Notes under the pieces: model-generated
The model's database searches: none
Seen by the model: the letters and a program-made list of their open reading frames with translations, nothing else
What the model was told of the DNA's origin: nothing
Translations under genes and position numbers: made by a program
In this document: piece by piece, positions 10,416 through 32,000 of the stretch
Layout of the letters: every line of letters begins with the position of its first letter
How positions within the stretch are numbered: position 1 is the first letter of the stretch
NCBI GenBank assembly: GCA_963699255.1
Contig: OY969425.1
Location: 720,001-752,000 of the forward strand
Length of the DNA: 32,000 nucleotides
DNA from: an uncultured bacterium
Lineage (GTDB): Bacteria > Margulisbacteria > WOR-1 > CAVSGV01
Direction of reading: 5' to 3'

Positions 10416-10429
10416 AAAGGGGGTATAAA

Positions 10430-10567: not shown

Positions 10568-10575
10568 CAAAGCAA

Positions 10576-10650: not shown

Positions 10651-10655
10651 TATTG

Positions 10656-10664: not shown

Positions 10665-10670
10665 AGCCAC

Positions 10671-12038: not shown

Positions 12039-12042
12039 ATCA

Positions 12043-12786: not shown

Positions 12787-12809
12787 AGTAACTTAAACCC
12801 CCTCTCTAT

Positions 12810-12830
12810 CTCCCCCTTACTAAGGGGGAG
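12810..12830. terminator. Palindrome ctccccctta-c-taagggggag between larB and larC
   Basis: Perfect 10+10 palindrome; the realistic stem is CTCCCCC/GGGGGAG with a 7-nt loop. No U-tract. Confidence 0.3.
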
Positions 12831-12869
12831 AAGTCTCAAGCACAAGCGAGAGACAGAAGGGGTAAGGTT

Positions 12870-12898
12870 TTGTTGGTTAGCCTTATATGTGTTAAAAT
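12870..12898 (+). promoter_or_regulatory. Promoter: -35-like TTGTTG (12870-12875), 17-nt spacer, extended -10 TGtTAAAAT (12890-12898), 7 nt upstream of larC ATG
   Basis: TTGTTGgttagccttatatgTGtTAAAATatgatccATG, with no SD. Confidence 0.45.
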
Positions 12899-12905
12899 AT
12901 GATCC

Positions 12906-14084: not shown

Positions 14085-14111
14085 CGTGTGACATCCTGTT
14101 CCCTTAAGAAG

Positions 14112-15251: not shown

Positions 15252-15351
15252 TTTTGATCTCCTTGTCATTTGTCCCGCCACCTTATTATTAATATCTAAT
15301 GTGTTACGGGATCCCGCTCTGCGGGAATATTTGAAATTGGTCATTCCATTC

Positions 15352-16908
15352 TTAAGGTTTAGGCCTTAACCCCCACATCAACGGACTTGGCTTTCTTCTG
15401 TTATAGAAATATCCTTTGTCAGGCTCTATCGCCCATGTTGGCGCAAGCCCTGTATTTACATCGATCCAGGTCCCCGATAACGAAAGATATGCCTCGTTAA
15501 AATCCGTTGTCCCAGGTATGTACTGGTAGATCACGTCCGCCGTTCCCGCGTCCCCCGTCCCGGCCCCCGATTCATAAAGATTTGAATTATCCAGGGTCAT
15601 CGGCTCCGCCTGCCCGGCGGCGATCAAGCTGAATCCGGACTCCATCGTAGACGGCCCCATGTATCCTCCCACCGCTCCAAACTGAGTCCCTGTAACGTTG
15701 GACATATTCGACCAGTTTGGTGCTGCATCATCCGACTTTATAGCGAAAAACTTCAGCCCAGCCGACAGTCCCCCGATGGTCACTTCCTGTGTTAAACCGT
15801 AATTCAGCGGCGCAGGCGTTGCGTAAGCAGGATCTACGGACGTCGCAAGATACCAGTCCACGAACCCTTCAAGAGTAGATGCTATGATCGGCTCCGAGCT
15901 GTACCTTATGTCATATCCCGACACATTGACATGATCGCCCAATCTGTCAGTATCGTACGGCGCTGTCCATTCCAGCGTCACCGTGTATGATCCCGCGCTC
16001 CCTCCAGAATCCTTTATCCTGAGGTCCGTTATTGTCTGCGGCGGCGTATTATCCGGGATGCGCAGCGTATGGAATGGTACAGATGTACTCCAGCCGCTTT
16101 CTCCAAATGAATTCCCCGCTTTCACCTTCACCCAATAATCAGTATCGTCGGACAGCCCCGTCATCCCTATCGACTTCAAGTCAGTCGAGTTCGGCGACGG
16201 ATAACGCTGCGTATTATACGACGGCGAGGACGTCCATCCGTTCGCGTTCGAGTCCAGTCCCCAGCTTATCACATAGTATCTCGCTCCAAAGGATGCCTCA
16301 AAAGTCGCCGTTGCGCTGGTAGTAGAAGGAGTCGGCACCAGTCCTGTGGGCGTGTCCGGCGCGGTCTTTGAGAACATTACCTGAAAATCTGAAAGCGCTA
16401 TCTCATTCGGCACTGGCGGCGTGTCCGGATTCGTGGTCGCAGTGAATATCTGGGATTCTCCGAACTTTGAATTGATTAAGCTGGGATCATTGTCCCACGC
16501 ACGCACGTAAAAGTAATTAACGCTCTCCTGCCCCGTTATACCATGATAGAACTTACCAGCCAGACTTGAAAACGAATCGTACTTATCCGCGTCATCTCCC
16601 ACATAATATGATTGCACAAAGCTCTCTCCGACCCCTACATTCCCGTCGCTCTGAGGACCAATTATATAGTTGTTTGACGCGTTTATGTACTGCAGCAGCT
16701 TCCCCGATGCCAGCGCAGACCCGGTATCATCCTTCACCGTCCCGAACGTGCTGAACCCCAGAGGTGCGGTGTACGGCGCCTGGTTAGGCGCGCAGCCCGC
16801 GTTCACCGAATAGTACGCGCAGTACGCTGGGCTCACCCAGCCTCCCATTATCACGATCAGCATAAAGATCAGTACCTTTAGCTTCCTTTTCATTTTATTT
16901 TTCTCCAT
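15352..16908 (-). CDS. Secreted protein: N-terminal YVRAW-type domain, two FN3-like domains, C-terminal tail domain shared with the giant protein
   Basis: SD AAGGAGGA lies 6 nt upstream of ATG 16908. Signal peptide MEKNKMKRKLKVLIFMLIVIMGGWVSPAYCA. FN3-like segments (PDTPTGL...YWVKVKAGNSFGESGWS; PPQTITDL...LEWTAP...YDIRYS). The C-terminus ...IEPDKGYFYNRRKPSPLMWGLRPKP parallels the giant protein's C-terminus. Confidence 0.75.
   Translation of the reverse strand: MEKNKMKRKLKVLIFMLIVIMGGWVSPAYCAYYSVNAGCAPNQAPYTAPLGFSTFGTVKDDTGSALASGKLLQYINASNNYIIGPQSDGNVGVGESFVQSYYVGDDADKYDSFSSLAGKFYHGITGQESVNYFYVRAWDNDPSLINSKFGESQIFTATTNPDTPPVPNEIALSDFQVMFSKTAPDTPTGLVPTPSTTSATATFEASFGARYYVISWGLDSNANGWTSSPSYNTQRYPSPNSTDLKSIGMTGLSDDTDYWVKVKAGNSFGESGWSTSVPFHTLRIPDNTPPQTITDLRIKDSGGSAGSYTVTLEWTAPYDTDRLGDHVNVSGYDIRYSSEPIIASTLEGFVDWYLATSVDPAYATPAPLNYGLTQEVTIGGLSAGLKFFAIKSDDAAPNWSNMSNVTGTQFGAVGGYMGPSTMESGFSLIAAGQAEPMTLDNSNLYESGAGTGDAGTADVIYQYIPGTTDFNEAYLSLSGTWIDVNTGLAPTWAIEPDKGYFYNRRKPSPLMWGLRPKP
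15355..15636 (-). other. C-terminal tail domain of the 518-aa protein (GFSLIAAG ... IEPDKGYFYNRRKPSPLMWGLRPKP)
   Basis: It shares GF(N/S)L, G(T/S)W, (F/I)EP(G/D)(R/K)GY(W/F), a Trp 6-7 residues from the end, and a terminal PKP with the giant protein's tail. Confidence 0.55.
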
Positions 16909-16932: not shown

Positions 16933-19900
16933 TCAGGGTTTTGGATAAACCCAATCCACATCTCCCGCACTGTTCTTTATGACCCAGTATCCTCTTCCAG
17001 GCTCAAACGTCGTTAACGCCCCGCTCCAGCTCCCGCCGGAGTATATCGCGGGCTTCCATGTATTGTTGATATAACCCCACACCTTGTCAGATGAAGTTAA
17101 ATAACTGCTCAGGTTCGTCTGCGCCATCGTTCGCGTCGTGTTATATGCCGTGCCCACAAGATTAGCCTTTTGACCCTTTAAGGCTATCGTTCGATCTGTC
17201 CCCGATAAATTACCTGTGACCTCCACCGTTACAGCGCTGTTAACCTTTATCCAGTAACCCTTATCCGCTTCTATCGAAGTCAACGACCCTTTCCATGTCC
17301 CGTCATAATACGCTATTCTCCACCCGCTAGATGGCGAATAGGAATATATATATGCTGTTAACCCCGCCAGCTGATCCCCTATTACGCTGCTGATGGATGT
17401 ATCTTCCGGTATCACAGGCAGTGAGAACAGATTGAATCCAGCAGCCAGAGGCATCTTCAATCCAGGCGGCGTTATCGTGAGACTGAACTGCTTGTCATTT
17501 ACGACCGGCTGGCTGTCCCCAACCTCCACAGTGAACGTCTGGATCTCGAATGTAGACGGTGTCCCATGCAGCAAGCCGCTGGTTTCCAGCGTCAACCCAA
17601 GCGGCAGGCTCCCGCTTTTTAAGGACCACGTATATGGGGCCACTCCGCCCGTCGCGACAAGTGTCATATTATATGCGGAACCCTCCATCCCGTCCGGCAG
17701 CTGAGACGCCGTCGTGATTATCAACGGGTTTATCGCCGATGCCGTATATCCCGTATAATGGTAGCCCATGTCAACTGTCCCTGAATCGCCGTTCACTCCG
17801 TTCGGGTTGGTCCCATATCCATGCACATAGTCGAGTCCAAGGTCGGAAGCCTCGCCGGTACCCTTATCAATGCACTCCGAAGTAGTGAGAAGATACACAT
17901 TTCCTTTTGGCCCGCTGGCAAACAGCGGCTCCGAGCTGATATTGCCTGTACCCGTGTAGCCGTTCTGAATATCTGAATAGGTTACTGTTGGAGTGGAAGT
18001 GGCATCGTTGGAGATGCTTACTCCGGAAGTTTGATAATATATGATCGAGTTCTTGATCGTCGGGGAGCAGTTTTCGTCATAGATCCCGCCGCCGCTGTGC
18101 GCTTCCGCACTATTTAAAGTTAATGTGCAGTTTATGATGGTTGCGGGGCAATTATTGTTATAAATACCGCCGCCTTCGCTGGTCGCACTATTTGAAATAA
18201 AAGTACAGTTTTTGATCGTCGGAGAGCAGGGGTTGTAGTTATATAATGCGCCGCCGCCAAAGACACTTGTCGCGCTATTTGAAGTAAAGGTGCAGCTTTC
18301 AATGGTTGCGGACGCATAGTTGTTAACTATCGCTCCACCATAACCCCCGATATTTAAAGTAAAGGTACAGTTCGAGACTTCCGGGGAGGCGGCCCAATTA
18401 TACATACAGCCGCCGCCGTCCTGGCTGTATGTTCTATTTGATGTAAAGGTGCAGTTCGTGATGATAGAAGGTGTATTGGTGCCGGTGGTATTATAGTTAT
18501 ATATTGCGCCGCCGAAATCTCCGCTGTTCGACGCAAAGGAACAATTTGAAACCGTTGCGGTAGCATTGGAGTTATAAATCGCTCCGCCCTCGCTGGTCGC
18601 GCAATTTGAAGTAAAGTTGCAGTTCTTAATTATCGGGGAGGCAGTGGTAATATTATATATCCCGCCTCCGCCGGTACTCTTATTGCTGACAGTTGTTGAC
18701 TTATTTGAAGTAAAGGTGCAGTTTGTAATGGTCGGAGCGGAGCTGTTGTTAACTATCCCTCCGCCGCTACCCCCGGCACTGTTTGACTCAAAGGTGCAGT
18801 ATGAGATGAACGGAGACGAGCTGGCCCAGTTACGCATCCCGCCGGCGTTGCTTGTGGTCGCCCTATTTGAAGTAAAGGTGCAGTTCATTATGGTCGGGGA
18901 GGAACCGCTGTTATCCATCCCGGCAGCTACTGTCGCAACATTTGTAGTAAAGGCGCAGTACATGATGGTTGGGGAGGATCCGGTGAAGTCAGCCATCCCG
19001 CCGCCGCCTGATGCGAGGTTTAAATTAAAGGTGCAGTATATGACTTCGGGGGATGAGGTCAAGCAGTAGATCCCGCCGCCTTCGATCGTCGCATTATTGG
19101 AAGTAAACGCGCAGTTCGTTATGGTCGGAGAAGAGCTGGTAAGATAAAGCCCGCCGCCGTTGCCGGTCATATAACCCTTTTTAATCGTGAAATTCTCAAT
19201 AGTGGTGGGGGAACTAAGATTGGATCCATACATGCACTGGACCTTGCCCTCTCCGGATATTATGGTAGTGGTGGCGTCGCCGGTCGGGCTCCAATTACCG
19301 TCAAACCCTCCTTTTAAATATGTCCCGCTGTCCAGGGTAATGGTTTGTGTCAGGTGATAGACTCCCATCCTCACAAAGATAGCGTCACTGGTTACCGCGA
19401 CAGTCTCGGCGCTGTTGATCGTCTTGAACGGATCTGTCGGACTTCCGCTCCCGGGTCCCGCAACTCCGGCATCAACATACCAGTAATTATTGAAGTGTCC
19501 ATACGGCCCGGAGTCCAGGGTCGTCGGATTAGCTATGTTATCTCCATTGAAACTCTTTAGATGCAGATACCAGCCGTCGGTTGGCGCTTCCAATGTCAAA
19601 AGGCCGCTGCTCCAAGTGGTGCCCCCTCCTCCCCACGTCTCGGTCGCGCTCTGGGTCCATGTATATTGATAATACTGCACTCCTCCGGGTCCGAAGGCAG
19701 GCATGCTGGTGAATGTGCATGTTGTCCCGATCTTATTTGATGTCACATTGGGAGGAACAGCCCATGTATATTTCGCGTCAGTGGTCGATGGCAGAGATTC
19801 TCCGCCGTCGTTATATGAATGAACATGACGGGTATACTGGGTGTTGGCGGTCAATCCGCTCTCCACGGTGGTGTAGATCCCGGCACCTATGAGAGCTTCC

Positions 19901-22900
19901 AGACTTGAATAAGAATTATGCAAGCTATATCCTATTTCCCCAACTACGTTACTAGCCCATGACCAATGGATAGTAGAAACAGATTCTGCGGTGCCGAGGA
20001 AACCTGACGGCGCATCAGGATAAGCAACTCCACCTGTATATCCGGTATAATGATAGCCCATATCCACTATCCCGGTATCGCCTTTTGTCATATCCGTGTT
20101 GGTCCCACAACCCTCCGTCGATCCCAGCCCAATGGTGTTGGCGTCGCCGGAGCCGGAATTGGTGCATGGAGAGTAATCTAAAAGATGCACATCACCACCC
20201 GCCGCATTCACAAAGAGCGCATCCGCGCTGATATTGCCGGTCCCCGGGTAGCCCCCCTGAATGCAGGAGTAGGTTACCTCCGGAGTAGAAACGGCATCAT
20301 TAGAGATGTTCCCTCCAGAAGTTTGATAATATACAATCGAGTTCTTGATCTTTGGAGAGGCCGATGAGTAAGCATATATCCCGCCGCCATTCGCAGAACT
20401 ATTTGAAGTAAAAGTGCAGTTTGAAATGATCGGAGCGGAGGAGCTGAAATTCTGAATTCCACCGCCGTAAACAGACCCGCTGTTGAGAGTGAAAATACAG
20501 TTCGTAATGGTTGGAGAAGCAGCGATATTGAAAATTCCGCCGCCGGAACCACTTGTCGCACTATTTGAAATGAAAGAGCAATTTGAAATGCTTGGGGAAG
20601 AATTGCTGTTATATATACCGCCGCCGGACCCATTGGCCTTATTTGAAGTAAAAGCGCAGTTTGAAATCGCCGGGGTATCTAAAATGTTATAGATCCCGCC
20701 GCCATTATTACTTGCGTTGTTCGAAGTAAAAGCACAACTTGAAATGAGCGGATAAGATGAAGTGTAGTTGAATATTCCACTGCCATTGACCGCACTATTG
20801 AAAGTAAAGGCGCAGTTTAATATCTTTGGAGAAGATGTCGCGTTATACATTCCCCCACCGCCGTAGGAAGTGCTTTTTGCCTCATTCGAAGTGAATATAC
20901 AGCTGATTATCCTCGGAGAAGAATTGTTTAGATAAAGCCCCGCGCCGGCATCCGCGCTGCCGCTGCGAACGGTAAAATATTCAACAGTAGTTGCAGAACT
21001 AAGATAGGACCCATACATGCATCCGACTGTGGCATCTCCGGATATTACGGTAGTTGTGGCGTCGCCGGTTGAATTCCAATTACCATCAAATCCTCCTCTT
21101 AAATATGTCCCGCTGTCAAGAGTGATTGTGGATGTAAGACGATATACCCCCATCCTCACATAGATAGCTTCGCCGGTAACCGCTTTCGCCTCGGCACTGT
21201 TGATCGTTTTAAATGGATCTAATTGAGTGCCGCTCCCGGGTCCCGCAACTCCGGCATCCACATACCAGTACTTATTGAAAGGCCCGTACGGCCCGGAGTC
21301 CAGGGTCGTCGGATTGGCTATGTTATCTCCATTGAAACTCTTTAGATGCAGATACCAGCCGTCGGTTGGCGCTTCCAATGTCAAAAGGCCGCTGCTCCAA
21401 GTGGTGCTCCCTCCTCCCCAGGTCTCGGTTGCGCTCTGGGTCCATGTATATTGATAATACTGCACTCCTCCGGGTCCGAAGGCAGGCATGCTGGTGAATG
21501 TGCATGTTGTCCCGATCTTATTTGATGTCACATTGGGAGGAACAGCCAACGTATATTTCGCGTCAGTGGTCGACGGCAGTGACTCTCCGCCGTCGTTATA
21601 TGAATGAACATGACGGCTATACTGGGTGTTGGCGGTCAAACCGCTCTCCAGCGTTCCGGTAGCGTCAACCGTGGCAAGGCATATCAAATTGTGGTTGGCA
21701 TCATGCAGAGAATACCCTATCTCATCTATCACACTGCTGCTATCCCACGACCACTGGATTTGTGAAGTAGATTCAGCGGTGCCCAGGAAGCTTTCCGGCG
21801 TAGCAGGACAGGAAACCCCCGATAAATATCCGGAATAATGGTAGCCCATGTCCACGATCCCGGTATCGCCGTAGGCTTCATTAGTGTTGGTACCGAAACC
21901 CTCCAGCGAACTTAAGCCAAGAACATGGGCGTCGCCGCTTCCGGAATTGGTGCAGGGAGAGTAATCTAAAAGCCGCAGATTTGTGGGCGCGTTCACAAAG
22001 AGCGAATCAGCGCTGATATTTCCTGTCCCCGAATAGCCGCCTTGAATGCAAGAATAGGTTATAGCTGGGGAAGATCCGTTGCTGTTCCTTATGACGTTTA
22101 ATGATCCGGAATTCCCATAAATGATCGAGTTTAAAATATTCGGGGAGCAGTAGTTCGCATTACAGATCGCGCTGCCGTCGATGCCTGAGATGTTTGAATT
22201 AATGGTGCAGTTTGAAATGGTTGGGGAGGAATATAGGGTGTTATATATCCCGCCGCCGTACTGAGTGGCCTCATTTGAAGTAAAGGCGCAATTTGTAATG
22301 GTTGGGAAGGTAGGGTAGTTAGAGGCGGCAGAGCCATAGAACCCGCCGCCGTCAACTGCAACATTTGAAGTATAGGTGCAGTTTGAAATGTGCAGGGTGC
22401 TTAGGTAGGCGTTATACATCCCGCCGCCGTACTGAGTGGCCTCATTTGAAGTAAAGGTACAGTTTGAAATGGTTGGGGAGGTATGGTAGTTAGAGGCGGC
22501 ATTGCTATAGAACCCACCGCCGTCAACTGCAATATTTAAAGTAAAGGCGCAGTTTGAAATGGTTGAGGATGAGTAGTTGCTGATCCCGCCGCCATAGCTT
22601 GCAACGTTTGAAATAAAGGCGCTGTTCGAGATGATCGAGACGGAGGTGACGTTATATATCCCGCCGCCATAACCGGCTTCTGAGCTGTTTGAGGAAAATG
22701 TACAGCTTTCTATGGTCGGGCTGGAGTAGGTTTCGTTATATATCCCGCCGCCGCCGGATGTCGCGTCACATGAAGTAAAGGTGCAGCCAAAGATTCTCCG
22801 GAGAAGAGGTGTGGTTGAATATCCCTCCCCCATAGCCGTTGATCGAGCTGTTTGTTGTAAAACCGCAATTTGAGATGTTCGGGGAGGCACTTGCGTCATA

Positions 22901-23070
22901 TATCCCCCCTCCGTAACCGGTATTAGACTTATTTGAATGAAAAGTACAGCCGGAAATGGTCGGGGAAACACCGTTATTATATATCCCGCCGCCGTAACTC
23001 GTTGTGCTATTTGACTCAAAGGTGCAGTTTGAAATGTTCGGGGTGGAGGAGACAGTGTTGAATACTGCAC
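16933..23070 (-). CDS. Giant repetitive beta-helix surface protein, C-terminal segment (ORF 3 of 3; genuine frame begins near 22795)
   Basis: From ...IFGCTFTSCDATSGGGGIYNE onward the ORF is Pmp-like coils, caps, and FN3 plus beta-sandwich spacers. It ends with a He_PIG Ig domain and a 176-aa tail domain. The first roughly 90 codons of the ORF-track translation are an out-of-frame reading of the upstream segment. Confidence 0.85.
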   Translation of the reverse strand: MQYSTLSPPPRTFQTAPLSQIAQRVTAAGYIITVFPRPFPAVLFIQISLIPVTEGGYMTQVPPRTSQIAVLQQTARSTAMGEGYSTTPLLRRIFGCTFTSCDATSGGGGIYNETYSSPTIESCTFSSNSSEAGYGGGIYNVTSVSIISNSAFISNVASYGGGISNYSSSTISNCAFTLNIAVDGGGFYSNAASNYHTSPTISNCTFTSNEATQYGGGMYNAYLSTLHISNCTYTSNVAVDGGGFYGSAASNYPTFPTITNCAFTSNEATQYGGGIYNTLYSSPTISNCTINSNISGIDGSAICNANYCSPNILNSIIYGNSGSLNVIRNSNGSSPAITYSCIQGGYSGTGNISADSLFVNAPTNLRLLDYSPCTNSGSGDAHVLGLSSLEGFGTNTNEAYGDTGIVDMGYHYSGYLSGVSCPATPESFLGTAESTSQIQWSWDSSSVIDEIGYSLHDANHNLICLATVDATGTLESGLTANTQYSRHVHSYNDGGESLPSTTDAKYTLAVPPNVTSNKIGTTCTFTSMPAFGPGGVQYYQYTWTQSATETWGGGSTTWSSGLLTLEAPTDGWYLHLKSFNGDNIANPTTLDSGPYGPFNKYWYVDAGVAGPGSGTQLDPFKTINSAEAKAVTGEAIYVRMGVYRLTSTITLDSGTYLRGGFDGNWNSTGDATTTVISGDATVGCMYGSYLSSATTVEYFTVRSGSADAGAGLYLNNSSPRIISCIFTSNEAKSTSYGGGGMYNATSSPKILNCAFTFNSAVNGSGIFNYTSSYPLISSCAFTSNNASNNGGGIYNILDTPAISNCAFTSNKANGSGGGIYNSNSSPSISNCSFISNSATSGSGGGIFNIAASPTITNCIFTLNSGSVYGGGIQNFSSSAPIISNCTFTSNSSANGGGIYAYSSASPKIKNSIVYYQTSGGNISNDAVSTPEVTYSCIQGGYPGTGNISADALFVNAAGGDVHLLDYSPCTNSGSGDANTIGLGSTEGCGTNTDMTKGDTGIVDMGYHYTGYTGGVAYPDAPSGFLGTAESVSTIHWSWASNVVGEIGYSLHNSYSSLEALIGAGIYTTVESGLTANTQYTRHVHSYNDGGESLPSTTDAKYTWAVPPNVTSNKIGTTCTFTSMPAFGPGGVQYYQYTWTQSATETWGGGGTTWSSGLLTLEAPTDGWYLHLKSFNGDNIANPTTLDSGPYGHFNNYWYVDAGVAGPGSGSPTDPFKTINSAETVAVTSDAIFVRMGVYHLTQTITLDSGTYLKGGFDGNWSPTGDATTTIISGEGKVQCMYGSNLSSPTTIENFTIKKGYMTGNGGGLYLTSSSPTITNCAFTSNNATIEGGGIYCLTSSPEVIYCTFNLNLASGGGGMADFTGSSPTIMYCAFTTNVATVAAGMDNSGSSPTIMNCTFTSNRATTSNAGGMRNWASSSPFISYCTFESNSAGGSGGGIVNNSSAPTITNCTFTSNKSTTVSNKSTGGGGIYNITTASPIIKNCNFTSNCATSEGGAIYNSNATATVSNCSFASNSGDFGGAIYNYNTTGTNTPSIITNCTFTSNRTYSQDGGGCMYNWAASPEVSNCTFTLNIGGYGGAIVNNYASATIESCTFTSNSATSVFGGGALYNYNPCSPTIKNCTFISNSATSEGGGIYNNNCPATIINCTLTLNSAEAHSGGGIYDENCSPTIKNSIIYYQTSGVSISNDATSTPTVTYSDIQNGYTGTGNISSEPLFASGPKGNVYLLTTSECIDKGTGEASDLGLDYVHGYGTNPNGVNGDSGTVDMGYHYTGYTASAINPLIITTASQLPDGMEGSAYNMTLVATGGVAPYTWSLKSGSLPLGLTLETSGLLHGTPSTFEIQTFTVEVGDSQPVVNDKQFSLTITPPGLKMPLAAGFNLFSLPVIPEDTSISSVIGDQLAGLTAYIYSYSPSSGWRIAYYDGTWKGSLTSIEADKGYWIKVNSAVTVEVTGNLSGTDRTIALKGQKANLVGTAYNTTRTMAQTNLSSYLTSSDKVWGYINNTWKPAIYSGGSWSGALTTFEPGRGYWVIKNSAGDVDWVYPKP
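16936..17463 (-). other. Unassigned 176-aa C-terminal tail domain of the giant protein (GFNLFSLP ... EPGRGYWVIKNSAGDVDWVYPKP)
   Basis: It carries an internal duplication (GTWKGSLTSIEADKGYWIKVNSA and GGSWSGALTTFEPGRGYWVIKNSA). Its final part is homologous to the C-terminus of the 518-aa protein. Confidence 0.6.
17464..17733 (-). other. He_PIG-type putative Ig domain within the giant protein
   Basis: LPDGMEGSAYNMTLVATGGVAPYTWSLKSGSLPLGLTLETSGLLHGTPSTFEIQTFTVEVGD matches the classic LPxGxxGxxY...atGG..PytW....G.LP.GL.L....G.l.GtP pattern (PF05345 expected). Confidence 0.8.
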
Positions 23071-26000
23071 CGCCTCCGGCTCCGGCGCTGTTCGAAGTGA
23101 ACGTGCAGTTTGAAATGGTCGGGGAAGAGGAGTTGTTGTTCCCTATCCCGCCGCCGCGGCCGGTGGACGCGTTATTTGCGGTATTTGAATTAAAAGTACA
23201 GTTTGAAATGGCCGGGGAAGCGTATCCGTTCCATATCGCGCCGCCGCCAAAAGTTGTGGTGCTGTTCGATCCAAAGGCACAAGATAAGAAGGTCGGGGAG
23301 GCGTAGTTGTTATATATCGCGCCGCCATAATTCGCGCTGGTATTTGAAGTAAAGGTGCAGTTTAAGACCTCCGGGGTAGAGTTGTGGCAATACATCGCGC
23401 CACCGCCCTGTCCGCTCGCGTTATTGAAACTAAAGGCGCAGTTCGTGATGGTCGGGGAGGAACTCTCAAGAGAAAGTCCGCCGCCATTGCCGGTAGTATA
23501 ACCTTTCTTTATGGTAAAGCCTTCGATCGTAGTAGCAGAACTAAGTCCGGTTCCATACAAACACTGGACTATGGCGTCCCCGGATATTATGGTAGTTGAG
23601 GCGTCACCGGTTGAACTCCAGTTACCGTCAAAACCTCCTTTTAAGTATGTCCCGCTATCCAGAGTAATTGTGGCCGTTAGTCGATATACTCCCATCCTCA
23701 CATAGATAGCTTCTCCGCTGGATGCTTTTGCCTCAGCGCTGTTGATCGTCTTGAACGGATCCGACGGAGTACCGGTTCCCGGACCGGCAACGCCGGCATC
23801 AACATACCAGTAATTATTGAAAGGCCCGTACGGCCCGGAGTCCAGGGTGGTCGGATTGGCTATGTTATCTCCGTTATAGCTCTTAAGATGCAGATACCAG
23901 CCGTCCGTTGGAGCTTCCAATGTCAAAAGGCCGCTGCTCCATGTGGTGCTCCCTCCTCCCCACGTCTCGGTCGCGCTCTGGGTCCATGTCCATTGATAGT
24001 ACTGCACTCCTCCGGGACCTACAGCCCCAAAAGTAGGCACACTGGTGAATGTGAACGACGTACCAACTTTATTATATGTGACACTGGGAGGGAGCGCCCA
24101 AGTGTATTTCGCGTCAGTGTTCGATGGCAGAGATTCTCCGCCGTCGTTATACGCATGCACGTGACGGCTGCACAGCGTATTGGCTGTCAATCCAGCCTCT
24201 TTGGTGGTGGTTGCGTCAGCTGCCTCGAGAACTTTCAAATTGTGATAATCATCATGCACAGAATATCCGATCTCGCCCGCCACATCGCTCCATGTCCATT
24301 GAATTTCTGAAGTTGAGCTTGCAGTGCCGCTGAATGTTGCCGGCGCGGCGGGACAGGGAACCCCGGATGAATATCCGGTGTAATGGTAACCCATATCCAC
24401 TATCCCGGTATCACCGTGAGTAGTATCCGGGTTTGTTCCATAACCCTCCAGCGATCCCAGCCCGAGCAAGTGGGCGTCGCCGGTCCCGGAATTTGTGCAC
24501 GGGGAATAATCTAAAAGATGCACATTCCCGGCCGGACCATTAACAAATTGCGGCTCCCCGCTGATATTGCCTGTCGCGGCAATTAACGGCTGGACACAGG
24601 AATATGTCACGATCGGATTAGAAGAGCTGATATTATAAATATTACCAGCATTAAGGGCGGCGCATGAATTTTTGCAAATGATCGAATTGGTTATCACAGG
24701 GGAACACGAGCCGAAATTATAGATCCCGCCGCCGTAACTCGTGGCGCTGTTTGAAGTTAAGGTGCAATTTGATATAGACGGGGAAGAATTACCTTCATCG
24801 TATATCGCGCCTCCGTTCACCGCGCTGTTCAAGGCGAAAGCGCAGTTGGAAATGACCGGTGAGCAGGACCCGTTGTTATATATACCGCCGCCATAATAAC
24901 CAGTCGAGCTGTTTGAAGTAAAGACGCAATTTATTATTACCGGGCAAGAAATAGACATGTCACAGATGCCGCCTCCGGCGGCCGCGCTGTTTGAAGTAAA
25001 GATGCAATTCATCACTTCCGGAGAAGAATAACTGTTAAATATGGCGCCGCCTGAGTTGCTCCCAATATTAGAAGTAAAGGTGCAGCTTGATATTATTGGA
25101 GAGGCTTTGTCGTTATAAATTCCGCCGCCCTGGTAAACATTATTTGAGGCGAAAAGACAATTCAAAATGAGCGGAGAAGTTTGAACATTATAGATCCCGC
25201 CCCCATAGCCATTATTCGTGTTATTTGTAAAGGCACAACCTGATATCTGCGGAGAGGAGTATAAGATATATATCCCGTTGCCGTTGCCACTTGCCTTATT
25301 TGAAGTAAAAGTACAATTAATTATGGATGCAGAGGACGAAATAAGATAAAGTCCTCCGCCACTGCCTGCGATAAAACCATTCTTTATAGTAAAGCCTTCA
25401 ACCGTAGTGGCGGAGCTAAGATTTTTCCCATACATGCACTGGACTATGGCATCTCCGGATATTATGGTAGTTGTGGCATCACCGGTTGAACTCCAGTTAC
25501 CGTCAAAGCCTCCTCTTAAATATGTCCCGCTATCGAGAGTAATGGTTTGGGTCAGATGATATACTCCCATCCTCACATAGATAGCTTCACCGCTGGATGC
25601 TTTCGCCTCAGCGCTGTTGATCGTTTTAAATGGATCCGAAGGAGTACCGGTTCCCGGCCCCGCAACTCCGGCATCAACATACCAGTAATTATTGAATGGC
25701 CCATACGGCCCGGAGTCCAGCGTGGTCGGATTTGCGATCCCATCACCGTTAAAGCTCTTAACATGCAAATACCAGCCGTCCGTTGGAGCTTCCAAAGTCA
25801 AAAGGCCGCTGCTCCAAGTTGTGCTCCCTCCTCCCCACGTCTCGGTCGCGCTCTGGGTCCATGTCCATTGATAATATTGCACTCCTCCGGGACCTACAGC
25901 CCCAAAAGTAGGCACGCTTGTGAATGTGAATGTGGTTCCGACTTTACTGGATGTCACATTGGGAGGAACAGCCCATGTATATTTCGCGTCAGTGGCCGAT

Positions 26001-28888
26001 GGCAGGGATTCTCCGCCGTCGTTATAAGCATGAACGTGACGGACGCATAGCGTATTTGCGGTCAACCCGCCCTCTTTGGTGGTGGTGACATTAGCTGTCG
26101 CCAGAACTTTTAAGTTGTGATCATAATCATGAACAGCATAGCCGATCTCGTCCGCCACATCGCTCCACGTCCATTGAATTTCTGAGGTTGAGTTCGCAGT
26201 GCCGATGAAAGTTGCTGGCACATCGGGATAGGCAATTCCGCCTGTATATCCGGAATAATGGTAACCCATATCCACTATCCCGGTATCCCCCTTAGTCGCG
26301 TCCGTATTTGTCCCATATCCCTCAAGCGAACTCAGGCCAAGTATATGTGCGTCGCCGGAGCCGGAATTGGTGCAGGGAGAATAATCTAAAAGATGCACAT
26401 CACCACCCGCCGCATTCACAAAGAGCGCATCCGCGCTGATATTCCCTGTCCCCGTCCAGCCACCCTGAATGCAGGAATAGGACACCTCCGGAGTAGAAAG
26501 GCCATCTGCAGAGTACATGCTTCCTCCAGAAATTTGATTGTATATGATCGAGTTTTTGATCTTTGGACAGGAGGAGGTGCAGTTATATATTCCACCAGTA
26601 TTACCCCATGCCTTATTTAAAGTAAAAGTACAGCTTAAGATGATCGGGGAAGAATTGGGCCAGTTACATATCCCGCCGCCGTTGCCGCTGCCATTCATTG
26701 CACTGTTTGAAGTAAAAGCACAGTTTGAAATAGTTGGGGAAGAGTAGCTATTGAACATCCCGCCACCACACCAGTTATTTGCATTATTTGAAGTAAAGGT
26801 GCAGTTTGAAATTTCGGGGGAAGAGTAGCTATTGTATATCCCGCCACCACCCTGAGGCGCACTATTTGACTTAAAAGTGCAGTTTGAAATGATCGGATAG
26901 GATTGAGTGTTGCCTATCCCGCCGCCGAAATATGCGCTGTTTGACTCAAAAGTACAGTTCGAAATAGTTGGGGAAGAGAAGTTATTGAATATCCCTCCGC
27001 CCAACCAGTTATTTGCACTGTTAAAAGTAAAGGCGCAGCCTAATATCTCCGGAGTGGAGAAGTGGCAATACATCCCGCCGCCGCCGTAGCTCGCGCTACT
27101 TGCCCTATTAAAAGTAAAGATGCAGTTATTGATGGTCGGGGAGGAACTCTCAAGAGAAAGCCCGCCGCCAGATTCGGCACTGCCATTTCGTATGGTTAAG
27201 CACTCAATTGTTGTCGCAGTACTGAGTCCGGTCCCTCTCATGCACCGGACTATTGCGTCACCGGATATTGTCGTGGTTGTTGCATCTCCCGTTGGACTCC
27301 AGTTACCGTCAAAGCCTCCTCTTAAATATGTTCCGCTGTCAAGAGTAATGGTAGAAGTCAGATGATAGAGGCCCATCCTCACAAAGATAGCTTCACCGCT
27401 GGATGCTTTCGCCTCGGCGCTGTTGATCGTTTTAAATGGATCCAACGGAGTACCGGTTCCCGGCCCCGCAACACCGGCATCAACATACCAGTAATTATTG
27501 AAAGGCCCATACGGCCCGGAGTCCAGGGTGGTCGGATTGGCAATATCAGCACCGTTATAGCTCTTAAGATGCAGATACCAGCCGTCTGTTGGAGCTTCCA
27601 ATGTCAAAAGGCCGCTGCTCCATGTGGTGCCCCCTCCTCCCCACGTCTCGGTCGCGCTCTGGGTCCATGTATATTGATAGTACTTCACTCCTCCGGCACC
27701 GAAAGCAGGCACGCTTGTGAATGTGAATGTTGTCCCGACCTTATTTGATGTCACATTGGGAGGAAGCGCCCAAGTGTATTTCGCGTCAGTTGTTGAAGGC
27801 AGCGATTCTCCGCCGTCATTATATGCGTGGACATGGCGGCTATATCGGGTATTGGCGGCCAACCCGACCTCTTTGGTGGTGGTCGCGTCAGCAGTCGCCA
27901 GAACTTTTAAGTTGTGATAATCATCATGCACGGCATAGCCCAACTCATCCGCCACATCGCTCCATGTCCATTGAATTTCTGAAGTTGAGCTGGCAGCGCC
28001 GTTGAAAGTTGCCGGCGCGGCGGGACAGGGAACTCCGGATGTATATCCGGTGAAATGATATCCCATATCCACGATCCCGGTATCACCGTGAGTAGTATCC
28101 GGGTTTGTTCCATAACCCTCCGTTGATCCCAGCCCAATGGTGTTGGCGTCGCCGGAGCCGGAATTGGTGCATGGGGAGTAATCAAGAAGGTGCACATTTC
28201 CACCGGCGCCTCCACTCACAAAACACGCGTCCCCGCTGATATTGCCCTCCCCTGTCCAGCCACCCTGAACGCAGGAGTATGTTACCACCGGAGTAGAAGT
28301 GGCGTCATTGGAGATGCTTACCCCTAAAGTTTGATTATAAATGATCGAATTTTTGATTTGTGGGGAGGAAGATGAGTTACAGATCCCTCCGCCGCAGCCG
28401 GTGCCGCCTGCGCTATTTAAAGTAAAGGTGCAGTTTTTGATTGTTGGGTTGGAAGAAATGCCGTTATATATTCCGGCACCCTGGCCGCTGTATGAATTAC
28501 TATTTGAAGTAAAGATACAGTTATTTATATTTGGGGAGGAATTGCCGTTATATATCCCGCCGCCGGACCAGTCGGCTCTATTTGAAGTAAAAATACAGTT
28601 ATTTATATTTGGGGAGGAATTGCCGTTATATATCCCGCCACCGTAATTTGTACTATTTAAATTAAACCTGCAGTTTAGTATCGTTGGGGTGGAGTAATTG
28701 TTATTTATCCCGCCGCCATGGTCTGCGAAACTTGATTCAAAAGTGCAGTTTGAGATTCTCCGGAGTGGAGTAATTATTATATATTCCGCTGCCAGAATTT
28801 GCAGTAAAAATACATCTTGCGATGGTCGGGGACGATGAATTGTCATATATCGTGCTGTAGCCATACACGTTGAATGCAGTAAAGACAC
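22766..28888 (-). CDS. Giant repetitive beta-helix surface protein, middle segment (ORF 2 of 3; genuine frame begins near 28757)
   Basis: It becomes repeat-like at ...ISNCTFESSFADHGGGINNNYSTPTILNC. It has no plausible signal peptide or RBS of its own. It ends 9 codons after ...GGIFNHTSSPE, where the next segment's frame takes over. Confidence 0.85.
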   Translation of the reverse strand: MSLLHSTCMATARYMTIHRPRPSQDVFLLQILAAEYIIITPLRRISNCTFESSFADHGGGINNNYSTPTILNCRFNLNSTNYGGGIYNGNSSPNINNCIFTSNRADWSGGGIYNGNSSPNINNCIFTSNSNSYSGQGAGIYNGISSNPTIKNCTFTLNSAGGTGCGGGICNSSSSPQIKNSIIYNQTLGVSISNDATSTPVVTYSCVQGGWTGEGNISGDACFVSGGAGGNVHLLDYSPCTNSGSGDANTIGLGSTEGYGTNPDTTHGDTGIVDMGYHFTGYTSGVPCPAAPATFNGAASSTSEIQWTWSDVADELGYAVHDDYHNLKVLATADATTTKEVGLAANTRYSRHVHAYNDGGESLPSTTDAKYTWALPPNVTSNKVGTTFTFTSVPAFGAGGVKYYQYTWTQSATETWGGGGTTWSSGLLTLEAPTDGWYLHLKSYNGADIANPTTLDSGPYGPFNNYWYVDAGVAGPGTGTPLDPFKTINSAEAKASSGEAIFVRMGLYHLTSTITLDSGTYLRGGFDGNWSPTGDATTTTISGDAIVRCMRGTGLSTATTIECLTIRNGSAESGGGLSLESSSPTINNCIFTFNRASSASYGGGGMYCHFSTPEILGCAFTFNSANNWLGGGIFNNFSSPTISNCTFESNSAYFGGGIGNTQSYPIISNCTFKSNSAPQGGGGIYNSYSSPEISNCTFTSNNANNWCGGGMFNSYSSPTISNCAFTSNSAMNGSGNGGGICNWPNSSPIILSCTFTLNKAWGNTGGIYNCTSSCPKIKNSIIYNQISGGSMYSADGLSTPEVSYSCIQGGWTGTGNISADALFVNAAGGDVHLLDYSPCTNSGSGDAHILGLSSLEGYGTNTDATKGDTGIVDMGYHYSGYTGGIAYPDVPATFIGTANSTSEIQWTWSDVADEIGYAVHDYDHNLKVLATANVTTTKEGGLTANTLCVRHVHAYNDGGESLPSATDAKYTWAVPPNVTSSKVGTTFTFTSVPTFGAVGPGGVQYYQWTWTQSATETWGGGSTTWSSGLLTLEAPTDGWYLHVKSFNGDGIANPTTLDSGPYGPFNNYWYVDAGVAGPGTGTPSDPFKTINSAEAKASSGEAIYVRMGVYHLTQTITLDSGTYLRGGFDGNWSSTGDATTTIISGDAIVQCMYGKNLSSATTVEGFTIKNGFIAGSGGGLYLISSSASIINCTFTSNKASGNGNGIYILYSSPQISGCAFTNNTNNGYGGGIYNVQTSPLILNCLFASNNVYQGGGIYNDKASPIISSCTFTSNIGSNSGGAIFNSYSSPEVMNCIFTSNSAAAGGGICDMSISCPVIINCVFTSNSSTGYYGGGIYNNGSCSPVISNCAFALNSAVNGGAIYDEGNSSPSISNCTLTSNSATSYGGGIYNFGSCSPVITNSIICKNSCAALNAGNIYNISSSNPIVTYSCVQPLIAATGNISGEPQFVNGPAGNVHLLDYSPCTNSGTGDAHLLGLGSLEGYGTNPDTTHGDTGIVDMGYHYTGYSSGVPCPAAPATFSGTASSTSEIQWTWSDVAGEIGYSVHDDYHNLKVLEAADATTTKEAGLTANTLCSRHVHAYNDGGESLPSNTDAKYTWALPPSVTYNKVGTSFTFTSVPTFGAVGPGGVQYYQWTWTQSATETWGGGSTTWSSGLLTLEAPTDGWYLHLKSYNGDNIANPTTLDSGPYGPFNNYWYVDAGVAGPGTGTPSDPFKTINSAEAKASSGEAIYVRMGVYRLTATITLDSGTYLKGGFDGNWSSTGDASTTIISGDAIVQCLYGTGLSSATTIEGFTIKKGYTTGNGGGLSLESSSPTITNCAFSFNNASGQGGGAMYCHNSTPEVLNCTFTSNTSANYGGAIYNNYASPTFLSCAFGSNSTTTFGGGAIWNGYASPAISNCTFNSNTANNASTGRGGGIGNNNSSSPTISNCTFTSNSAGAGGGAVFNTVSSTPNISNCTFESNSTTSYGGGIYNNGVSPTISGCTFHSNKSNTGYGGGIYDASASPNISNCGFTTNSSINGYGGGIFNHTSSPENLWLHLYFM
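28501..28642 (-). repeat. Near-perfect tandem duplication of one 26-aa beta-helix coil (78-nt period)
   Basis: 28501-28564 and 28579-28642 differ at 2 of 64 nt. They encode GGGIYNGNSSPNINNCIFTSN twice. Confidence 0.9.
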
Positions 28889-31800
28889 AGTTTAAGATGG
28901 TCGGGTCGGATATATTAGTTAGATAAATCCCGGCGCCAATACCTTTGCCATTTCTTATGGTTAAATTCTCAATTGTGGTGGCGGAACTGAGTCCGGTTCC
29001 ATACATGCACTGGACAATGGCATCTCCTGATATTGTTGTGGTAGTTGCATCTCCAGTAGGGCTCCAATTACCGTCAAAGCCTCCTCTTAAATATGTCCCG
29101 GTGTCTAGAGTAATTGTGGATGTCAGATGATAGAGTCCCATCCTCACAAAGATAGCTTCACCGCTGGATGCTTTCGCCTCGGCGCTGTTGATCGTCTTGA
29201 ACGGATCTGACGGAGTCCCGGTTCCCGGTCCGGCAACACCGGCATCCACATACCAGATCGTGGAGACGTTTTGCGTATATCCGGAATAATGGTACCCCAT
29301 GTCCACGATCCCGGTATCGCCGTGAATGCCATCCGGGTTTGTCCCGTAACCCTGCTGCCATCCCAGATTAAGGTCTGAAGCCTGGCCTGTCCCGGCGTTT
29401 ACGCACTCCGAAGTCGGGAGAAGGTGCACATCAGCGGCCGGTCCGTTTACAAATAGCGGCTCCGCGCTGATATTGCCTGTACCCGGGTAGCCGTCCTCAA
29501 TGCAGGAGTAGATAACGGTTGGAGAAGAGCTGTCATCATAAATGTTCCCTCCTGAATTTCCATAAATGATCGAGTTTAAGATGATCGGTGAGGTGAAGGA
29601 GTTATATATTCCGCCGCCGCTGCTTGCACTATTTGAAGTAAAGGTGCAGTTTGAAATGATCGGGGCAGAGGAGCTGTCATCAAATATTCCGCCGCCGATG
29701 GCGCTTGTACTATTTGAAGCAAAAACGCAGTTTAAAATGGTCGGAGAAGCCGCAGAGAGATAAAGCCCTCCTCCACCATAGTCGCTGCTATTTAAAGTGA
29801 AGACGCAGTGCAAGATGGTTGGAGAGGAACTGCTGAGATAAAGCCCGCCGCCATAGTCGTAGCCATTATAGCCGTTCTGTATGGTAAAACATTCAATGGT
29901 CGTGTTTGAGCCAAGATCGTATCCATACATGCACGGGACATTTCCTTCTCCGGATATTATGGTGGTTGAGGCTTCGCCGGTCTGGTTCCAGTTATTGTCA
30001 TACCCTCCCCTCAGATATATGCCGTCATAAAGAGTGATGGTCCCCGGTCCGTATCCATTCTGGTATAGATAGTAGATCCCCCGCCTCACACGTATCTCAT
30101 CCCCGCTTGCCGCCGCCGCCTCAGCCAGATTGATCGTTCTAAATGGATCCCACTGGGTGCCGCTTCCCTGACCGGAAGCGGCCGCGTCTACATACCAGTA
30201 TGGATATGAATCGTAGGGCCCATAGTCCGCGGTGCCGCTGGCAACACCATCATGGTTAAAGCTCTTAACATGCAAATACCATCCCTCACCGGTAGCCAGT
30301 AAAGTTATGTTGCCGCTGCTCCATGTGCTCTCCCCGCCTCCCCAGGACTCGGTTGGGATCTGATCCCAGGTATACTTATAGTATTGAACCCCTCCCGCTC
30401 CAAAGACAGCTTCATTAGTAAAATTAAAAGATGCCGTATTGTATGGGAGACGGGTTTTTTGATAGGCGACCTCGGGAGAAAGAGAGAGGGTATATTTTGA
30501 ATAACTATTTGAAGGCGCCGAATCCCCGCCGTTGTTATAAGCATGGACATGCCGGGTATATTGGGTATTAGCGCTCAGTCCAGACTCCAGGCTTGCGGTA
30601 ACATCAGCTCCTGTAAGTCCTTTCAAATTCTGACTGTCATCATTAAGGCAATATCCATCCTCCCCCGCCACATCGCTCCATGACCACAAGATGGAAGAAG
30701 CGGATTCCACGGTGCCGATGAAGTTTGACGGCTGAGCAGGAGGACTGGCAGTTGCCTGCGAATACCCGGTGTAATGGTAACCCATGTCCACGATCCCGGT
30801 ATCGCCGTGAATGCCATCCTGGTTGGTTCCATAGCCCTGCTGCCATCCCAGACCAAGAGCTGAAGCGTCGCCGGTCCCGCCATTGACGCAGGGCGAGTAA
30901 TTATAAAGACGCACATTAGCGGGCGCGCCCACGAACTGCGGCTCCCCGCTGATATTCCCGGTCCCGGTGTAGCCGCCCTGGATACAGGAATAGGTAACAG
31001 TTGAACTGGATGAGGTTCTATTTGAGATGTTTCCTCCGGAAGCTTGATAATAAATGATACAGCTTTCGATGGTCGGGGCGGAAGAGGAATCGTTAAGTAT
31101 GGCGCCGCCGTTATGTGCGCTATTTGAATTAAAGGTGCAGTTTGAGATAGTTGGCGAGGATGAGACGTTATATATCCCGCCGCCGCCGTTATTGGAAAAA
31201 GATGATAAATTTGAAGTAAAGACGCAGTTTGAAATGGCTGGGGAGGAGGAGTCGTTAAGTATCCCGCCGCCGCTGCTTGCGCCATTTGAAGTAAAAGCGC
31301 AATTATTGATCGTTGGGAAGGAGTTGTAGTCAGATATCCCGCCGCCGCCCTGAACAGCTCCAACATTTGAAATAAAGGTGCAGTAATTGATCGTCGGTGA
31401 TGAGTTGTAGTTGGATATCCCGCCGCCATAATTATTTGCCTGATTTGAAGTAAAGACGCAATTTAATATGGTCGGGGAGGAACTCTCAAGAGAAAGACCC
31501 GCGCCATAGCCGGAGGTATAACCTTTTTTTATGGTGAGATCTTCAACGGTAGTAGCGGATGTAAGCCCGCTTCCGCTCATGCACCGGACGGTACCCTCTC
31601 CGGATATTATCGTCGCTGAGGCGTCAGTGGTTCGAACATCCCAATTGCTAAGGTCATAACCACCCATCAAATGGACGCCGCTTTTGAGAGTGATAGTGCC
31701 TGTGCCCGGAGCGTTCAGATGGTAGACTCCCTGCCTCACATGTATCTCTTCTGTGCCGGTGGCAGCCGCTTCGGCGCTGTTGATCGTTTTGAACGGATCA

Positions 31801-32000
31801 CCAATAGTCCCGCCTCCTGGACCGGTAACATTAGAATCAACATACAAGATGAGACCTGAAGGAGGCGCAGCAGCGCTTATGGTGAACACGCCGCTTTCCC
31901 CTGTCCCCAGGTTGTAATATGTATCCACCGCGTTCATCTTTATTTTGGCCGTGGTGGTAGGAACATCGGTGACTATCCAGGGATAGATCCCGTCATTATC
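28737..32000 (-). CDS. Giant repetitive beta-helix surface protein, N-proximal segment (5' end lies beyond the window)
   Basis: The frame stays open from ATG 31937 to position 32000 (DNDGIYPWIVTDVPTTTAKIK-MNAV...), so the gene starts outside the window. It contains modules 1-2 and the start of module 3, and stops 6 codons after ...IYNNYSTPE. Confidence 0.85.
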   Translation of the reverse strand, partial: DNDGIYPWIVTDVPTTTAKIKMNAVDTYYNLGTGESGVFTISAAAPPSGLILYVDSNVTGPGGGTIGDPFKTINSAEAAATGTEEIHVRQGVYHLNAPGTGTITLKSGVHLMGGYDLSNWDVRTTDASATIISGEGTVRCMSGSGLTSATTVEDLTIKKGYTSGYGAGLSLESSSPTILNCVFTSNQANNYGGGISNYNSSPTINYCTFISNVGAVQGGGGISDYNSFPTINNCAFTSNGASSGGGILNDSSSPAISNCVFTSNLSSFSNNGGGGIYNVSSSPTISNCTFNSNSAHNGGAILNDSSSAPTIESCIIYYQASGGNISNRTSSSSTVTYSCIQGGYTGTGNISGEPQFVGAPANVRLYNYSPCVNGGTGDASALGLGWQQGYGTNQDGIHGDTGIVDMGYHYTGYSQATASPPAQPSNFIGTVESASSILWSWSDVAGEDGYCLNDDSQNLKGLTGADVTASLESGLSANTQYTRHVHAYNNGGDSAPSNSYSKYTLSLSPEVAYQKTRLPYNTASFNFTNEAVFGAGGVQYYKYTWDQIPTESWGGGESTWSSGNITLLATGEGWYLHVKSFNHDGVASGTADYGPYDSYPYWYVDAAASGQGSGTQWDPFRTINLAEAAAASGDEIRVRRGIYYLYQNGYGPGTITLYDGIYLRGGYDNNWNQTGEASTTIISGEGNVPCMYGYDLGSNTTIECFTIQNGYNGYDYGGGLYLSSSSPTILHCVFTLNSSDYGGGGLYLSAASPTILNCVFASNSTSAIGGGIFDDSSSAPIISNCTFTSNSASSGGGIYNSFTSPIILNSIIYGNSGGNIYDDSSSPTVIYSCIEDGYPGTGNISAEPLFVNGPAADVHLLPTSECVNAGTGQASDLNLGWQQGYGTNPDGIHGDTGIVDMGYHYSGYTQNVSTIWYVDAGVAGPGTGTPSDPFKTINSAEAKASSGEAIFVRMGLYHLTSTITLDTGTYLRGGFDGNWSPTGDATTTTISGDAIVQCMYGTGLSSATTIENLTIRNGKGIGAGIYLTNISDPTILNCVFTAFNVYGYSTIYDNSSSPTIARCIFTANSGSGIYNNYSTPENLKLHF

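Follow-up and report, generated by a model that had tools for sequence, protein, structure and literature searches.

A giant gene for a putative ten-module beta-helix surface protein, split by two one-base frame breaks in the current assembly, in an uncultured Margulisbacteria bacterium

Results and Discussion

A giant modular gene read in three frames

We analyzed a stretch of 32,000 nucleotides (nt) from an uncultured bacterium of the WOR-1 lineage of Margulisbacteria (assembly GCA_963699255.1, contig OY969425.1, positions 720,001 to 752,000; hereafter the window, to which all positions refer), and in particular a giant gene that occupies its minus strand from 16933 to the edge at 32000. Three long open frames, each in a different reading frame, span this region (32000..28737, 28891..22766, and 23142..16933; open reading frames (ORFs) C, B, and A in Table 1), and their translations together form one continuous repeat architecture. 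Frame C is still open at the window edge. The three ORFs are found among the best database matches as P0001, P0002, and P0003, all on one contig of 1,770,855 bp, and P0003 (2,193 amino acids, aa) contains ORF C and extends it upstream by 1,106 aa, which comprise a signal peptide (MKKSGLLFLISCFIFLMLTSSAHA, with cleavage before A), modules 1 and 2, and an Ig-like spacer. A preliminary description of the window had placed the N-terminus and the signal peptide outside of it, and both are recovered in P0003. Its count of eight modules is correct for the window and too low for the whole gene, which has ten, because the window edge cuts the gene and two further modules lie upstream. Once joined, the conceptual full product has 6,127 codons and is encoded by a gene of ~18.4 kb, of which the 3' 15 kb lie inside the window, in agreement with the size first given (more than 15 kb and 5,000 aa). 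The proposal that the three ORFs form a single protein holds for the architecture, which is continuous across them, but each junction requires a +1 correction, and the gene is not one intact ORF in the present assembly.

Table 1. Features of the giant gene and of the two genes downstream of it.
Feature	Position in window	Strand	Description
ORF C	28737..32000	minus	End of Ig-like spacer, module 3, FN3 and second spacer domain, module 4, start of module 5
ORF B	22766..28762	minus	Rest of module 5, modules 6 and 7 (each with FN3 and second spacer domain), start of module 8; matches P0002
ORF A	16933..22800	minus	Rest of module 8, modules 9 and 10, He_PIG, C-terminal domain, stop codon; matches P0001
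Frame break 1	28750..28763 (extra base ~28756)	minus	CCGGAG-A-ATCTC; frame C reads STPENLKLHF and stop, i.e. ..GIYNNYSTPENLKLHF and stop; the +1 frame continues as coil ISNCTFESSFADHGGG
Frame break 2	22788..22801 (extra base ~22794)	minus	CCGGAG-A-ATCTT; frame B reads SSPENLWLHLYFM and stop, i.e. ..GIFNHTSSPENLWLHLYFM and stop; the +1 frame reads IFGCTFTSCDATSGGGGIYN
Module 9 (representative)	20047..21267	minus	407 aa; N-cap WYVD..DPFKTINSAEA..VRMGVY (DUF1565-like), 7 Pmp-type coils, C-cap ..TYSCIQGG..GTGNIS..LLDYSPCTNSG..VDMGYHY
Spacer behind module 9	19483..20046	minus	FN3 and ~88-aa domain (GGVQYYQYTWTQSATETWGGG..GWYLHLKS); one of six such spacers
He_PIG Ig-like domain	17461..17727	minus	PF05345, E 1.8e-10, 41.5 bits versus cut-off 24, profile positions 15-96 of 96
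C-terminal domain	16936..17460	minus	175 aa, two ~85-aa halves, ends WVYPKP
First downstream gene	15352..16908	minus	518 aa, 24 nt behind the giant gene; signal peptide, fn3-like domains, C-terminal half copy of the tail domain (..DKGYFYNRRKPSPLMWGLRPKP)
Second downstream gene	14112..15344	minus	410 aa; signal peptide, C-terminal FlgD_ig-type domain; one-base indel relative to contig L001 at 15188, in the signal-peptide region

Caps, coils, and spacers

The modules are built as first described, with a conserved N-cap, a run of coils of the polymorphic membrane protein (Pmp) type carrying the GGxI and FxxN motifs, and a conserved C-cap, and are strung on Ig-like spacers. Eight (W/L)YVD..DPF(K/R)TINSAEA N-caps start within the window (31847, 30197, 29255, 27490, 25684, 23809, 21267, and 19482), and eight C-caps end there in VDMGYH(Y/F) (30771, 29286, 28052, 26255, 24380, 21835, 20047, and 17755). 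A hidden Markov model (HMM) of the coil built from the sequence, with the consensus SSPTISNCTFTSNSA..GGGIYN and the motifs GGGI and FxxN, finds 70 coils in these eight modules, with 4-17 per module, slightly more than the ~66 coils (3-16 per module) counted before. Both the number and the sequence of the coils differ from module to module. An FN3 domain and a second spacer domain (~88 aa, initially put at ~85 aa) follow six of the eight window modules, as had been noted, one other Ig-like domain follows module 2, and modules 1-2 and 4-5 abut.

Profile searches with the three ORFs support the beta-helix, FN3, and He_PIG assignments of the preliminary description and do not bear out two of the others. 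Beta_helix (PF13229) matches at 156.4, 157.1, and 93.9 bits versus a cut-off of 25.9, with 4-9 stretches in each ORF (E 1e-26 to 4e-46). The N-cap corresponds to DUF1565 (PF07602; 35.1 bits versus a cut-off of 20.3, residues 612-792 of ORF C) and matches in sequence a glycoside hydrolase family 120 (GH120) xylosidase in the PDB (3vst, E 1e-4). The fn3 family (PF00041) is matched by ORFs A and B (30.0 and 34.1 bits versus a cut-off of 25), with ORF C below the cut-off (20.9 bits), and the FN3 domain of the spacer matches the FN3 domain of chitinase A1 in the PDB (E 1.6e-5). Chlam_PMP (PF02415) lies just above its whole-protein cut-off of 20.6 bits in two of the three ORFs (ORF A 30.3, ORF C 21.4 bits), with no single stretch significant, and is not matched by ORF B. 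Neither TIGR01376 nor a choice-of-anchor Q family was matched in NCBIfam at E <= 0.01 by any of the three ORFs, and no Pfam match to an autotransporter beta-barrel or to a Pmp middle domain was found in them. The resemblance of the cap to choice-of-anchor Q proteins is real in so far as this is the NCBI name of some distant homologues, but it does not establish membership of that family. For the second spacer domain, thought at first to be Y_Y_Y-like (PF07495), we found no Pfam family at E <= 10 with the 96-aa domain alone (the 188-aa spacer gives fn3 only) and no PDB sequence match, so that the Y_Y_Y assignment is unsupported.

An AlphaFold model of a whole module and its spacer, built on a 6-sequence alignment, has an overall predicted local distance difference test score (pLDDT) of 50.6. 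The coil core (residues 110-310) is modeled at pLDDT 70-90 as regular, short, stacked strands, and the caps and spacers lie below 50.

A terminal domain shared with many extracellular proteins

As in the preliminary description, the protein ends with a He_PIG domain and a tail that had no assignment (Table 1). No family in Pfam or NCBIfam, including the C-terminal sorting domain of the type IX secretion system (T9SS; PF18962 and TIGR04183), and no sequence in the PDB was matched by the tail. It nevertheless belongs to a large family, since 1,884 cluster representatives were matched at E <= 1e-3. Among full-length matches, 108 of 142 carry the domain at their extreme C-terminus, often ending in W-x-Y-P-K-P, and it is joined to unrelated extracellular passengers (fn3, PQQ propellers, TIG, CBM11, PKD). 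A scan with the 3' end of the gene also retrieved a relative of the domain in a JGI metagenome (L085, 6512-7051), where it is joined to a beta-propeller protein at least 2,351 aa long. AlphaFold predicts the tail, from a 28-sequence alignment, as an all-beta, two-lobed fold with high confidence (pLDDT 97.6, predicted template modeling (TM) score 0.91), and a Foldseek search of this model against the PDB gave no match (best E 0.065, TM <0.25).

The domain thus resembles the T9SS and FlgD_ig-type terminal domains in being all-beta and in standing at the very end of many unrelated extracellular proteins, and a neighboring gene carries a FlgD_ig-type terminal domain. It differs from described sorting domains in having no sequence or structural match to any of them, and in its length, which is twice the usual one and divided into two halves. 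By analogy with these systems, we propose it as a candidate new sorting or anchoring domain.

Tandem capped beta-helices in other lineages

The arrangement had been regarded as unusual and had not been recognised as a described family, a view that did not survive comparison with homologues. When N-cap and C-cap HMMs were run on the 120 best homologues, 28 of them carried at least three full-length C-caps. P0007 has seven C-caps with a period of ~430 aa, and P0116 and P0030 have 4-6 units with alternating or abutting caps. A scan of species-representative genomes, among which the source genome was absent, gave 272 stretches with module relatives (best match 42% identical) in metagenome-assembled genomes (MAGs) labelled Planctomycetota, Deltaproteobacteria, Verrucomicrobiota, LCP-89, Coatesbacteria, Krumholzibacteriota, Zixibacteria, Acidobacteriota, and others, ranging from stand-alone single units of 500-800 aa to multi-cap ORFs of more than 4,000 aa (L023, L069, L017, L044, L054). 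Giant beta-helix proteins are also already present in the literature. Judging from these sequences, the protein described here belongs to a widespread class of giant surface proteins with tandem beta-helices, for which there is still no name.

Its closest counterparts are giants annotated as "right-handed parallel beta-helix repeat-containing" or "predicted outer membrane repeat" proteins in MAGs labelled Planctomycetota, Deltaproteobacteria, CSSED10-310, and others. N-caps, Pmp-type coils, and C-caps homologous to those described here are present in these proteins, many of which string several complete units in tandem, but identity reaches at most ~42%. Among the retrieved proteins, the FN3 and second-domain spacer occurs outside of the genome itself only in P0080, a MAG protein labelled Thermoleophilia; the C-terminal tail domain was found in none of the top 120 homologues from other genomes; and with ten units and 6,127 aa the present protein stands at the long end of the retrieved set. 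Chlamydial Pmps (PF02415, TIGR01376) also have coils with the GGxI and FxxN motifs, and PF02415 exceeds its whole-protein cut-off in two of the ORFs, with no single stretch significant. They have one passenger where the giant protein has ten separately capped helices, and the latter has no autotransporter beta-barrel or Pmp middle domain and ends instead in He_PIG and another terminal domain. The mannuronan C-5 epimerases of the AlgE type are likewise modular and secreted and can hold more than one capped right-handed beta-helix module, but the structural match to them is weak, and the present protein has neither RTX / R-modules nor a match to an epimerase profile. By description rather than by sequence, it can also be likened to the CaD3 giant of Chlorobium chlorochromatii, a very long repetitive beta-helix surface protein, six times longer than the present one, of a bacterium that, like ours, may live attached to other cells. 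This giant parallel beta-helix protein has 36,806 aa and is cited, along with other bacterial giant genes, in 10.64898/2026.06.07.730766 (from Reva & Tummler 2008). The literature search on Margulisbacteria adhesins found nothing relevant.

Accuracy of the assembly

An independent short-read contig (L001, Logan run ERR10755942) covers positions 2969-15627 of the window and is 99.98% identical to it, with one single-nucleotide polymorphism (SNP) and one one-base indel, so that the window can be considered generally accurate. The indel lies at 15188, where L001 is without one base (minus strand GGGATC[T]GGTCA), and where the window keeps the signal peptide of the second downstream gene in frame and L001 truncates it. 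The indel, in a surface-protein gene, reflects either polymorphism or a fault of assembly, and, like the two frame breaks, it adjoins GATC. Near-identical populations, or their assemblies, can thus differ by one-base indels in surface genes.

The possibility that the module array is itself an artefact, with repeats collapsed or expanded during assembly, has to be considered for a gene this repetitive, all the more as L001, from a near-identical population, stops at 15627 and thus short of the giant gene. However, at the DNA level the repeat copies share no more than 75-87% identity, and no exact direct repeat is longer than 117 nt, so that the copies can be told apart and an incorrect module count caused by collapsed repeats is unlikely; each module also has its own coil number and sequence. 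We consider such an artefact highly improbable.

Two frame breaks in the same sequence context

The ORFs join only by a one-base skip at both junctions, in the common context CCGGAG-A-ATCT, and removing one A from each brings back the canonical coil SSPE-I-x-(N/G)-C-T-F. An identical 11-mer (CCGGAGAATCT) is found at both sites, and its restored form holds the palindrome AGATCT / GATC. GAG-ATC would be read in just two coils, the broken ones; the intact P-E-I coils use GAG-ATA or GAA-ATT. In the window, GATC is over-represented (217 sites versus 125 expected) and AGATCT under-represented (3 versus ~8 expected), and each restored break would add one AGATCT. An error tied generically to the motifs GATC, GAGATC, or CCGGAG was rejected because many such sites are undisturbed, among them CCGGAGATC at 9368 and copies of GAGATC and AGATCT elsewhere in the window. 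The paralogue P0005 from the same genome ends in ..YSAPENLKL, the same break, known in this case from the protein end alone. None of ~500 other retrieved proteins has a PENL.. ending, which suggests that the cause of the breaks is specific to this genome. The two broken coils share 55% identity over 93 nt, compared with a mean of 53% for coil pairs. Their flanks are thus at background identity, and recent gene conversion between the two coils was rejected; the recurrence is not one event spread in this way.

Stops in the 0 frame follow 7 and 11 codons downstream of the breaks. Even so, ORFs B and A each stay open over ~2,040 codons, and repeat blocks across all three ORFs show dS values of 0.5-1.6 and dN/dS ratios of 0.16-0.29, the signature of old repeats under purifying selection. 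This suggests that the parts downstream of the breaks have been translated for most of their history, and that the breaks are recent, artefactual, or bypassed. No independent assembly across the break sites was found, as a 400-aa query over both junctions gave no near-identical protein from another assembly and a metagenome scan with the 3' end of the gene gave no orthologous beta-helix gene. Whether the full-length product is made depends on whether the extra bases are real.

A second giant beta-helix locus lies on the same contig outside of the window and is likewise fragmented. Of its products, P0005 starts in the middle of a domain and ends at the PENLKL break, and P0004 starts in the middle of a coil and ends with the same He_PIG and C-terminal domains.

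Competing explanations of the frame breaks

The breaks could be consensus or polishing errors, the true gene being a single intact ORF of ~6,127 codons, and we give this explanation serious weight while stopping short of calling it probable. It accounts well for the long open downstream frames with their signature of purifying selection, for the perfect coil that a one-base removal gives at both sites, for the shared 11-mer with AGATCT / GATC in its restored form, and for the PENL.. ending that recurs in the paralogue P0005 and nowhere else among the ~500 proteins; the one-base difference adjoining GATC between the window and the short-read contig also fits. The extra base lies, however, outside any homopolymer, the abundant GATC sites of the window are undisturbed, with CCGGAGATC, GAGATC, and AGATCT intact elsewhere, and 12.6 kb match the short-read contig apart from one SNP and the indel, at which the window has the version that keeps the signal peptide in frame. 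Genuine mutations are a real possibility to which we likewise attach somewhat less than even confidence. The gene would then be recently inactivated or in an "off" state, maybe through reversible indel switching, and would give only the secreted product of 2,193 aa without the C-terminal domain. The occurrence of three independent breaks at a homologous coil position (two here, and one in P0005 seen at the protein level) speaks for this, as do the unrelated flanks, which favor a local hotspot over a copied single event, the one-base indel in the signal peptide of a neighboring surface gene in a 99.98% identical population, and the location of the gene in what is a variable surface-protein island in relatives. 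Yet the sites have no simple-sequence repeat, the substrate of classical phase variation, there is zero decay downstream, and, without a mechanism, chance would be very unlikely to produce the identical insertion three times. We know of no mechanism that would produce such recurrent identical one-base insertions.

A programmed +1 ribosomal frameshift, or another form of recoding that sets the ratio of short to full-length product, appears very unlikely to us. The context recurs three times with intact downstream frames, the Shine-Dalgarno-like GGAG stands directly upstream at both sites, and site 2 (GGAG-AAU-CUU-U) resembles the frameshift site of prfB, which is AGGGGG-UAU-CUU-UGA. But the coil residues (I-S-N-C-T-F and I-F-G-C-T-F) start in the +1 frame right behind GAG, which places the shift at GAG|A|AUC and makes re-pairing of the P-site tRNA impossible; site 1 has CUC-A, the slippery CUU-U being present at site 2 only; and the stops of the 0 frame come 7 and 11 codons further on rather than at the site. 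The immediate start of the canonical residues and the distance of the stops thus make a prfB-like shift unlikely, and no relatives carrying the site were found. More speculatively, and as something of a long shot, the recurrent breaks could be a genuine sequence-specific switch or recoding signal that chooses between a short secreted product and a full, anchored fibre of 6,127 aa, the indel in the neighboring surface gene being a second example, and, separately, the 175-aa domain could act as the signal by which a surface-display pathway not yet described sorts or anchors its proteins.

A putative segmented surface fibre

We propose, with moderate confidence, that the gene encodes a Sec-exported, multivalent, adhesin-like surface fibre segmented into ten right-handed beta-helix modules. 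The giant protein would be exported through Sec by means of the signal peptide found in P0003, would be retained on, or passed through, the envelope via its C-terminal domain, on the model of other terminal sorting domains, and would extend as a segmented fibre whose many beta-helix faces may bind other cells, surfaces, or glycans multivalently, as in chlamydial Pmps. The beta-helical passenger of these is presumed to mediate adhesion, and their GGA(I/L/V) and FxxN repeats are reported to bind in this multivalent manner. A secreted role at the surface, already suggested in the preliminary description, is made plausible by the recovered signal peptide and by a terminal domain common to many extracellular proteins, and is further supported by the two downstream genes, which also encode signal-peptide proteins with C-terminal sorting-type domains; the adhesive function is the more conjectural part of that suggestion. 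Several points weigh against our proposal. Adhesion is suggested by analogy, and the same holds for the role of the tail in sorting, for which other terminal domains are the model. The capping of the modules is read from sequence conservation and not from structure, because the whole-module model is poor (pLDDT 50.6). From the gene as it stands in the assembly, translation would yield just the first 2,193 aa, which include the signal peptide and ~4.3 modules and lack the C-terminal domain. Finally, a beta-helix is just as characteristic a fold of polysaccharide lyases, hydrolases, and phage depolymerases.

This last point leads to the view that the modules are catalytic or glycan-specific units (lyase, hydrolase, or epimerase) and the protein a surface-tethered multi-enzyme depolymerase rather than an adhesin. 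The top Foldseek matches of the low-confidence module model are indeed all beta-helix enzymes or tailspikes, the best of them being exopolygalacturonase (3jur), the AlgE6 A-module (5lw3), the Sf6 tailspike (4urr), and chondroitinase B (1ofm), and the similarity of the N-cap to DUF1565 and to the GH120 xylosidase points in the same direction. Cell-wall digestion has moreover been proposed for giant proteins of uncultivated bacteria (10.1101/2023.11.21.568195), so that both adhesion and cell-wall attack have been put forward in the literature for such proteins. The structural matches are weak, however (E 6e-4 and worse, TM <= 0.3), and no glycoside-hydrolase, lyase, or epimerase family profile in Pfam or NCBIfam was matched by the three ORFs. 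The coils are also very regular and of the Cys-containing Pmp type, and would seem not to be the irregular, loop-bearing coils that form catalytic grooves. We regard an enzymatic function as rather unlikely and retain the adhesin-like fibre as the favored interpretation.

The analysis documents the full anatomy of a ten-module beta-helix surface protein for a poorly known phylum, Margulisiibacteriota, some members of which live attached to other cells, and it shows that "beads-on-a-string" arrays of capped beta-helices are a recurrent, unnamed architecture across many uncultivated lineages. The by-products may outweigh the gene itself, and the interest of the locus rests mainly on them. One is a large family of C-terminal domains without annotation, whose fold is predicted with confidence and which has no relative of solved structure. 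The second is the recurrent, non-random one-base frame breaks, which, if real, would represent an unrecognised way of switching giant surface genes, and, if artefactual, an assembly error tied to sequence context, by which giant genes become split in annotations.

Genomic setting

No terminator-like site was found between the giant gene and the two genes downstream of it, and, from this arrangement, the 518-aa gene and the giant gene are probably transcribed together. The remainder of the window is ordinary chromosome and encodes a Memo-AMMECR1 fusion, a radical SAM enzyme, LytR-CpsA-Psr, an M50 protease, DJ-1, PolX, RarA, LarB, and LarC. Named homologues of RarA belong to Candidatus Margulisiibacteriota / WOR-1, at 70-78% identity. 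Relatives with an 83% identical RarA keep the flanking synteny and have other large surface genes behind LarC (L081 13294-21332, 2,760 aa; L083 13216-21332, 1,314 + 1,599 aa), which suggests that the locus is a variable surface-protein island.

Two tandem paralogous ORFs on the plus strand (3588-4193, 201 aa, and 4423-5019, 198 aa) share the motif ..TMW(Q/R)PALIT(R/P)AIRSEF.. and have no Pfam match. On the minus strand between 770 and 3402, the gene for the Memo-AMMECR1 fusion (499 aa) overlaps that of the radical SAM enzyme; we take these to be the AmmeMemoRadiSam trio, of which two parts are fused here.

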